Sequence record: PQ478073.1
DNA: 64,000 bases
From: a phage
Reading direction: 5' to 3' (one strand)
Shown: positions 40,179 through 40,511 of the stretch, in pieces
How the letters are laid out: each line of letters begins with the position of its first letter
How positions within the stretch are numbered: the first letter of the stretch is position 1
The notes under the pieces: generated by a model
Seen by the model: only the letters and a program-made list of their open reading frames with translations
The model's database searches: none
Told to the model about the DNA's origin: nothing
Made by a program: the position numbers and the translations under genes

Positions 40179-40511
40179 ATGCTAAATCTAAATATTCAAG
40201 GCAACGTTGATATCACTCCAGCAATCCAAGATGCTATTTACAATGAAGCAAAAAGTCTGGATAAGTACCGTACTTCTTCAGTACTAGACATTGGTGTTCA
40301 TGTTAAGAAAGAGCATAAAACTCAATATGCTGTAACTTTAACTGCTGGTAGTAAATCAGTAACTGCTGATGATGCTGATTTGTATAAAGCAATTGTTGAA
40401 TCTTTTGATAAGATGGAAACTGTATTCAGTAAAGACAAAAGCATTAAATTACACCGCAGAAACCATCCAGAACACCCAGTTCTTGATGATTTGACAGAAA
40501 ACGAAGAGTAA
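40179..40511 (+). CDS. hpf: ribosome hibernation promoting factor (HPF/RaiA family)
   Basis: collinear similarity to recalled E. coli HPF (MQLNITGNNVEIT...). Confidence 0.8.
   Translation: MLNLNIQGNVDITPAIQDAIYNEAKSLDKYRTSSVLDIGVHVKKEHKTQYAVTLTAGSKSVTADDADLYKAIVESFDKMETVFSKDKSIKLHRRNHPEHPVLDDLTENEE

Follow-up and report, generated by a model that had tools for sequence, protein, structure and literature searches.

Within the 64,000 nucleotides of phage DNA analysed here (sequence record PQ478073.1, hereafter the window), the open reading frame at positions 40179-40511 encodes a member of the HPF/RaiA (S30AE) family of ribosome hibernation factors. Judged by its sequence, the architecture of the protein is close to that of RaiA and not to that of short HPF, and the protein probably acts as a RaiA-type ribosome-binding factor. 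The finding of an HPF-like gene is correct but already known, both from public annotation and from literature of 2019, and since the annotation is public it adds little as a discovery. What the analysis contributes is a classification as RaiA-type, the motif in the tail and the definition of the clade; the remaining interest lies in the biology of phage-encoded hibernation-factor homologues. The gene and the two parts of its product are located as follows:

40179-40511, + strand: coding sequence (stop codon included) of the 110-residue HPF/RaiA-family (Ribosomal_S30AE) protein, based on the open reading frame list, Pfam, the structure model and the fold search
40179-40439, + strand: folded core, residues 1-87 (AlphaFold2, predicted local distance difference test score (pLDDT) about 83-88)
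40440-40508, + strand: predicted disordered C-terminal tail, residues 88-110 (pLDDT < 50; conservation by element)

Family membership and fold

An original prediction, made from the letters of the window and a list of their open reading frames, had placed a phage-encoded ribosome hibernation promoting factor at exactly this position. The open reading frame is real (+ strand, ATG start, 110 codons), its N-terminus MLNLNIQGNVDITPAI is the one quoted there, and the phage origin was also seen correctly, the genome being that of an Asteriusvirus. The proposed collinear similarity to HPF/RaiA is far above chance. In the Ribosomal_S30AE profile search, which had been set beforehand as a check, Pfam PF02482 scores 41.0 bits against a gathering cut-off of 23.7 (E = 3.3e-10), with residues 5-87 aligned to profile positions 2-84 of 88 (83/88 positions). 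The protein is also matched by phrog_8990 (S30EA) at 6.2e-6. A phmmer search against the PDB finds T. thermophilus HPF at E = 4.9e-7, and all its matches are HPF, RaiA, pY or S30 proteins except the weakest (a dynein light chain, E = 0.95); with the family profile, matches to PDB sequences go down to E = 7.5e-9.

Structure prediction agrees with an HPF fold. The AlphaFold2 model, obtained from an alignment of 13 family members (mean pLDDT 75), has the topology b-a-b-b-b-a, with strands at residues 2-8, 36-44, 50-56 and 59-65 and helices at residues 14-30 and 68-86. A Foldseek search of the PDB returns only HPF, RaiA, pY or RafH chains at ranks 1-38 (E down to 8e-8), and the best superposition is on E. 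coli HPF in the 100S ribosome (6h4n_x; template modelling score 0.79, root-mean-square deviation 1.7 A, 90 columns). A competing match to Dodecin (PF07311) was rejected, since it remains under its cut-off (19.5 bits against 22.5, E = 0.0012) and overlaps the S30AE match; no dodecin is found among the Foldseek matches. Taken together, the gene product is a member of the HPF/RaiA (S30AE) family.

Core, tail and ribosome-contact residues

The classification as RaiA-like is based on the conserved 23-residue tail with its RR motif and acidic tip. Present after helix a2 in all family members, this tail consists of a basic segment (KSIKLHRRNHP, in which R94 is invariant), a variable linker at residues 98-103 and a conserved acidic tip (DLTENEE, family-wide DLTE-x-EE). 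In an alignment with E. coli RaiA and HPF, whose sequences were confirmed against PDB entries, the RR pair (R93-R94) stands at +24/+25 from the conserved Tyr, a spacing identical to that of R95-R96 in RaiA. Two other subtypes were considered and rejected. A long HPF needs a C-terminal dimerisation domain and about 180-190 residues, whereas the phage protein has 110 residues, no second Pfam domain and a tail that is predicted to be disordered; a short HPF (YhbH) has about 95 residues and ends at helix a2 without a tail. As to the earlier name 'hibernation promoting factor', the family is therefore right but the subtype is not, the tail with its RR motif and acidic tip being RaiA/pY-like, and the gene should better be labelled 'HPF/RaiA family, RaiA-like'.

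Among the phage proteins, the best conserved elements are the b2-b3 loop (KKEHK), a2, the basic part of the tail and the acidic tip; the least conserved are the surface of a1 and the tail linker. This agrees with the reported location of the ribosome contacts of HPF and YfiA, mainly on a2 and the strands, and would be expected under selection on the canonical ribosome-binding face. For a view at residue level, the published contact residues of enterobacterial HPF and YfiA were placed on the alignment with the phage protein. Retained are Y30 (equivalent to W30/Y30), V40, T53, K78 (K80), K85 (K87) and K87 (K89 of HPF), as well as R93-R94, which correspond to the uS7 contact R95-R96 of YfiA. Not retained are R83, replaced by Thr81, and K91, replaced by I89 (K90 is the neighbouring residue). 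YfiA of K. quasipneumoniae contacts the ribosome strongly through Arg95, Arg96 and Ala97, with Arg96 touching uS7, and its tail heads toward the RMF site.

Relatives and prior annotation

Identity of the region is 99.9% to Escherichia phage SP27 and 96-99.8% to slurp01, G17, Sharanji, phAPEC6, 121Q and PBECO4, which are jumbo myoviruses of 350 kb belonging to the genus Asteriusvirus. None of the complete E. coli genomes holds this DNA, which indicates a gene of virulent phages and not of a prophage. Identical (100%) proteins are annotated as 'HPF/RaiA family ribosome-associated protein' in UE-S1 and as 'S30EA' in slurp01 and Sharanji, and an allele with 83-84% identity as 'HPF/RaiA family' in the RefSeq entries of 121Q and PBECO4 and as 'ribosome-associated inhibitor A' in phAPEC6. 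The Sharanji paper counts the protein among the phage translation factors (together with IF3, the CCA enzyme and a tRNA deaminase), and Mizuno et al. 2019 (PMC6375957) described seven cultivated phages with PF02482 proteins, the related jumbo phage GAP32 among them. Genes that are nearly identical do not carry consistent labels: 'putative sigma 54' and 'putative sigma factor' occur among the GenBank records of 121Q, UB, A4, Ecwhy_1 and fEgEco12, 'sigma-54 modulation protein' among those of 121Q, A4 and UB, and in CRJP21 and MH494197 (CMSTMSU) the matching site is given other products. The name 'sigma-54 modulation protein' is an obsolete one for the S30AE family, and we take such labels as carry-over of that old name, with no sigma-related function.

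Against 1.84 billion representative sequences an exhaustive phmmer search yields only 8 matches at E < 1e-3, two of which are the family itself, four are proteins of 103-107 residues from metagenome (Logan) assemblies and one is a weakly matching repeat protein of 455 residues (E = 9.5e-4). The one Logan protein used as a query is 73% identical to the HPF-like gene of jumbo phages that infect Salmonella or Klebsiella (Munch, 7t3, fENko-Kae01). The eighth match, and the best outside phages, is a YfiA-type protein of Photobacterium (29% identity, E = 5e-4). Neither E. coli HPF nor RaiA finds the Asteriusvirus gene as a tblastn query; the HPF query returns 130 phage records, most of them rV5-like. 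The divergent, phage-restricted clade comprises 43 phage records. Three different tblastn queries did not bring up the HPF of Cronobacter phage GAP32, and a scan of IMG/VR for uncultivated relatives returned only the 121Q genome itself. By sequence comparison, the Asteriusvirus gene belongs to a second, older and more divergent phage HPF/RaiA clade that extends across several jumbo-phage genera.

A recent capture from the host was rejected on the identity of 27-30% to E. coli HPF and RaiA, on equivalog scores far under their cut-offs and on the finding that phmmer gives no close bacterial donor. A link to the dormancy-infecting jumbo phage Paride was dropped as well: its paper has no content on ribosomes or hibernation factors, and tblastn gave no Pseudomonas phage matches.

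Selection and exchange of alleles

In seven pairwise comparisons the ratio of nonsynonymous to synonymous substitution rates (dN/dS) of the HPF-like gene lies between 0.11 and 0.24; the gene is functional and under purifying selection. Compared to phAPEC6 and 121Q there is one strongly divergent stretch:

40169-40412, + strand: recombination patch covering the ribosome-binding site and codons 1-78 (mismatch distribution against phAPEC6; the only strongly divergent stretch against phAPEC6/121Q)

In 2.7 kb, 52 of the 61 mismatches to phAPEC6 fall within this patch. Nucleotide identity to phAPEC6 and 121Q is about 80% in the patch against at least 99.5% in the flanking genes, and the HPF-like gene has a synonymous rate (dS) of about 0.6 (dN/dS 0.13) whereas dS in the flanking genes is at most 0.03. 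In UE-S1 the mosaic is reversed, with 82% identity for the lysozyme gene and 99% for the HPF-like gene. Diversifying selection or hypermutation behind the divergent patch is ruled out by the dN/dS of 0.13 at a dS of about 0.6, values which fit recombination. The folded core is thus exchanged between phages as a recombination patch with sharp boundaries.

Proposed action on the ribosome

Phage control of the host ribosome pool is poorly understood, and the single published test of a phage HPF (that of rV5) was negative. From the family, fold, tail architecture, conservation, purifying selection and synteny observed here, we infer by homology the binding to ribosomes, its site, an effect against RMF and a benefit to the phage. 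On the host 30S subunit, the b-a-b-b-b-a core would enter the channel that separates head from body and overlap the A- and P-site tRNA and the mRNA positions of vacant ribosomes. Contacts would be made by the b-sheet, the basic b2-b3 loop (KKEHK), Y30 (stacking on A790 of 16S rRNA) and the basic face of a2; the RR motif of the tail would contact uS7, with the tail running toward the RMF site as it does in RaiA. The predicted outcome is a set of inactive, protected 70S monomers and not the 100S dimers driven by RMF and HPF. If the action is indeed RaiA-like, the protein would oppose 100S dimer formation instead of promoting it. The phage, and not the stress response of the host, would set the state of the idle ribosome pool during infection, and the possible gain is that the decoding centre and the 3' end of 16S rRNA are shielded from nucleases, or that RMF-mediated dormancy is blocked. 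Should ribosome binding be true, then lytic phages themselves set the hibernation state of ribosomes, which would matter for how phages replicate in hosts that do not grow and for defences of the dormancy type.

A more far-reaching version, to which we would give only a small chance, is a phage-made RaiA mimic whose tail bars RMF and so vetoes 100S dormancy (whether in starvation or in a DRT2-type defence), while its core shields the decoding centre from nucleases. Such a mimic would be a counter-measure against ribosome hibernation as an antiviral state, and would help to explain jumbo-phage replication in slow-growing gut E. coli.

A number of observations weigh against a RaiA-type ribosome-binding factor. 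Identity to any bacterial homologue is about 25-30%. The NCBIfam profile TIGR00741 (HPF/YfiA family) scores 36.3 bits, just under its cut-off of 40.9 (a near miss that is consistent with a divergent family member), and the enterobacterial equivalogs score far lower: 23.2 bits against a cut-off of 125 for HPF (NF007780) and 19.3 bits against 158 for RaiA (NF007654), the latter indicating that the phage protein is neither an orthologue nor a recent copy of host raiA. R83 is the residue through which HPF and YfiA alike contact m4C1402; its position is taken by Thr81 here and by Thr, Val or Lys across the phage family. All structures of RaiA show its last residues disordered, so that the likeness of the acidic tips could be compositional. 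The HPF of rV5, when present in E. coli, was expressed but absent from salt-washed 70S and 100S ribosomes and left the 100S fraction unchanged (PMC6375957); a literature search gave no functional study of any other phage HPF or RaiA, and no expression-timing data were found for the HPF-like gene. Finally, four Salmonella-propagated Asteriusvirus records (SD-*) are without much of the gene. In the two records that were aligned the deletions are in frame (108 nt in SD-15_S21 (1378-1602), 180 nt in SD-6_S16 (1343-1495)), and both would destroy the fold. They stem either from true loss of the gene on that host or from the assembly; if they are not artefacts, the gene is dispensable on a Salmonella host. 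In these two records the lysozyme gene is fragmented, and the genomes fall short of those of related phages by 20-40 kb.

Some of these points might also be read in favour of an anti-hibernation decoy. Here the binding site would be the same but the effect on translation the opposite: the protein, weakly bound or easily displaced by initiation factors or tRNA, would compete with host HPF, RaiA or RMF for the site, with the net effect that host hibernation is prevented or reversed and translation of phage mRNA continues. Competition of a viral HPF with the host factor was put forward, as a speculation, by Mizuno et al. (PMC6375957). The exchange of R83 for Thr and the overall acidity of the protein (isoelectric point 5.5, net charge -5) could lower its affinity, and a RaiA-like tail would exclude RMF, which rises in the host during the DRT2 defence response that is thought to stop phage via dormancy. 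With genes for IF3 and a CCA-adding enzyme, moreover, this phage family invests in ongoing translation. As most of the contact residues are kept, however, we consider a decoy unlikely, albeit the foremost of the rival explanations.

Rather less probable still is a neofunctionalised S30AE fold that does not bind ribosomes at all and serves another nucleic-acid or protein role, its acidic C-terminal motif docking a different partner. The absence of rV5 HPF from ribosomes would suit such a role, and so would the loss of the R83 contact, the strong divergence (8 matches among 1.84 billion representatives) and the conservation of the DLTE-x-EE tip behind a variable linker, which resembles a short linear motif. 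Yet conservation sits on the elements that contact 16S rRNA, uS7 and uS9 in HPF and YfiA, the RR pair keeps the spacing of RaiA, and the rV5 result refers to another clade and to ribosomes that had been washed at high salt. A RaiA-type ribosome-binding factor therefore remains the reading that we prefer.

Transcription unit and neighbouring genes

Features around the HPF-like gene are, in order of position:

39090-39235, + strand: candidate sigma70-like promoter (TTGTAA-16-TATACT, TG before the -10) with a leader of ~110 nt (conservation, consensus match)
39236-40162, + strand: LysM + GH24 phage-lysozyme gene, 308 residues, TTG start, N-terminal hydrophobic anchor (Pfam Phage_lysozyme 1.6e-11, and LysM)
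40165-40174, + strand: Shine-Dalgarno region AAGGAAGGTG within the 16-nt gap after the lysozyme stop codon (from sequence)
40520-40553, + strand: intrinsic terminator with an 11-bp stem (AAAGGGACAGA / TCTGTCCCTTT) followed by a T-rich tract (hairpin fold), ending the unit of lysozyme and HPF-like genes

The HPF-like gene has a Shine-Dalgarno sequence (GGAAGGTG) 4 nt 5' of its ATG, and no significant local structure is present around the start codon (z = 0.32). The G+C-rich hairpin of the terminator (40520-40546) has a folding energy of -18 kcal/mol (z = -3.3 against shuffled sequences); a terminator is annotated at the equivalent site in UE-S1 and G17, and the Munch orthologue likewise has one on its 3' side. 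Between the lysozyme gene and the HPF-like gene there is no terminator in the intergenic gap of 16 nt, and the terminator 3' of the latter is common to both. The two genes are probably co-transcribed.

A second promoter-like sequence, at 40491-40519, overlaps the 3' end of the HPF-like gene and matches the sigma70 consensus at 11 of 12 positions (TTGACA-17-TATACT). Its -35 hexamer consists of the conserved Asp-Leu-Thr codons of the tail motif, its -10 lies just past the stop codon, and a transcript from it would begin inside the terminator hairpin. Being a consensus match only, it may be due to chance. With 3 occurrences in the window where 1.07 are expected, the recurring motif TTGA-N18-20-TATACT shows no significant enrichment.

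The original prediction had also pointed to a position just downstream of an endolysin gene. A LysM-GH24 lysozyme gene does lie directly upstream (its start is taken from the annotation of UE-S1, 121Q and phAPEC6), and the catalytic motifs of T4-type lysozymes can be spotted by eye (E in KEAEG, D/T in YKDMKGNYTIGYGH). That it is the endolysin is plausible but not established. Virions of phAPEC6 contained the tail lysozyme Gp241, but its orthologue in that phage, Gp293, was not found in them, and Asteriusviruses encode in addition a separate T4-type lysozyme of 162 residues with demonstrated lytic activity. By itself, a lysozyme neighbour has no bearing on the function of the HPF-like gene.

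The close arrangement of both genes could suggest a late shut-off of translation, in which co-expression with lysozyme silences the ribosomes before lysis. The 16-nt gap, the lack of a terminator within it and the shared terminator after it are in line with this idea. However, the neighbouring genes are typical early or middle accessory genes, the upstream promoter is sigma70-like, and in Munch a terminator and another gene stand in between, so that coupling to lysozyme is not conserved; moreover, the benefit of a stop of translation at lysis is not evident. We regard a late shut-off as very improbable, and continue to favour a RaiA-type factor.

Upstream of the lysozyme gene, 39090-39235 is better conserved across Asteriusviruses than the flanking coding DNA, and the leader contains an invariant TGTAGAAAGTCC. 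The promoter in this segment is a candidate for the start of the transcript that carries the lysozyme and HPF-like genes. Predicted pairing within the leader covers the Shine-Dalgarno sequence of the lysozyme gene, though with weak covariation support, and resembles the hairpin that sequesters the ribosome-binding site of T4 gene e. No match of the leader to Rfam was found below E 0.25. A hammerhead suggested by the strings GAAAGUC and CGAUGAG was discarded, since the order of the elements is wrong and no Rfam match below 0.25 is present.

Surrounding genes on the + strand code for 2H phosphoesterase-like, CCA-adding, NUDIX, glutaredoxin and Macro domain proteins, an accessory type that would be typical of early or middle expression. 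The 2H-SAK phosphoesterase domain match at 38657-39067 is below threshold (25.6 bits against a cut-off of 27), and 42111-43223 encodes the CCA-adding tRNA nucleotidyltransferase (PolyA_pol head and RNA-binding domain). The HPF-like gene thus sits among genes for RNA repair and translation support, which are found on both sides of the locus, and in Hallingskeid an RNA ligase gene lies just upstream. In the 64-kb window no tRNA genes or known RNA families were found. Two overlapping tandem paralogues at 41150-41566 and 41553-41975 (138 and 140 residues, BLASTP E = 6e-12) share a C-terminal motif GTLP...QY-FI-DTFGID-..YQ and have no Pfam match; both genes recur as a conserved pair in 121Q, in UE-S1 and in phages of the Munch type.

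Comparison with known hibernation factors

E. coli RaiA (YfiA/protein Y, 113 residues) is the factor that the phage protein resembles in design. Both have the b-a-b-b-b-a fold as a core with a disordered tail of ~20 residues, an RR pair 24-25 residues past the conserved Tyr and a tail end that is hydrophobic and acidic (NFVEEVEEE in RaiA, DDLTENEE in the phage protein), and the aromatic residue at position 30 and the lysines of the basic track on a2 are kept. Differences are the low identity (27%), the Thr in place of R83 and the b2-b3 loop, which in the phage is a distinct and invariant KKEHK. RaiA, furthermore, is part of a stress regulon, whereas the phage protein is encoded by a lytic jumbo phage. 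With E. coli short HPF (YhbH, 95 residues) the phage protein shares the fold, the best superposition, 30% identity and Y30; short HPF is nevertheless tail-less, ends right after a2 and makes 100S dimers together with RMF.

Among phages, the rV5-type (Vequintavirinae) HPF is likewise a coliphage S30AE protein (~105 residues) with a short C-terminal tail, which ends in IDFGE. It is 43-44% identical to E. coli HPF but only 24% to the Asteriusvirus protein, and both genomic context and phage family differ. The tail of the rV5-type and XaC1 phage HPFs is looser, with a hydrophobic and acidic end. From sequence, the rV5-type and Asteriusvirus clades look like separate acquisitions, or like a much older one.

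The RaiA-like tail is shared with the Munch-type and Hallingskeid orthologues. Those of Munch, 7t3 and SE_PL (Salmonella), fENko-Kae01 (Klebsiella) and Hallingskeid (Erwinia) are 35-49% identical to the protein of the window, are annotated as 'ribosome-associated inhibitor' and have the same tail design, K/R-R ... DLTE-x-(D/E)E. Gene order in Munch and Hallingskeid is alike too: lysozyme, HPF-like gene, terminator (annotated in UE-S1 and Munch), small open reading frames, CCA tRNA nucleotidyltransferase, NUDIX and thioredoxin/glutaredoxin, except that Munch has an extra gene and terminator between lysozyme and the HPF-like orthologue. A neighbourhood that is shared although the proteins are only 35-49% identical points to a long vertical history of the gene in these phages, in contrast to the rV5 type. 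The best explanation is that the gene is carried vertically, with exchange of alleles by recombination, in Asteriusvirus and related 350-kb jumbo phages of enterobacteria.

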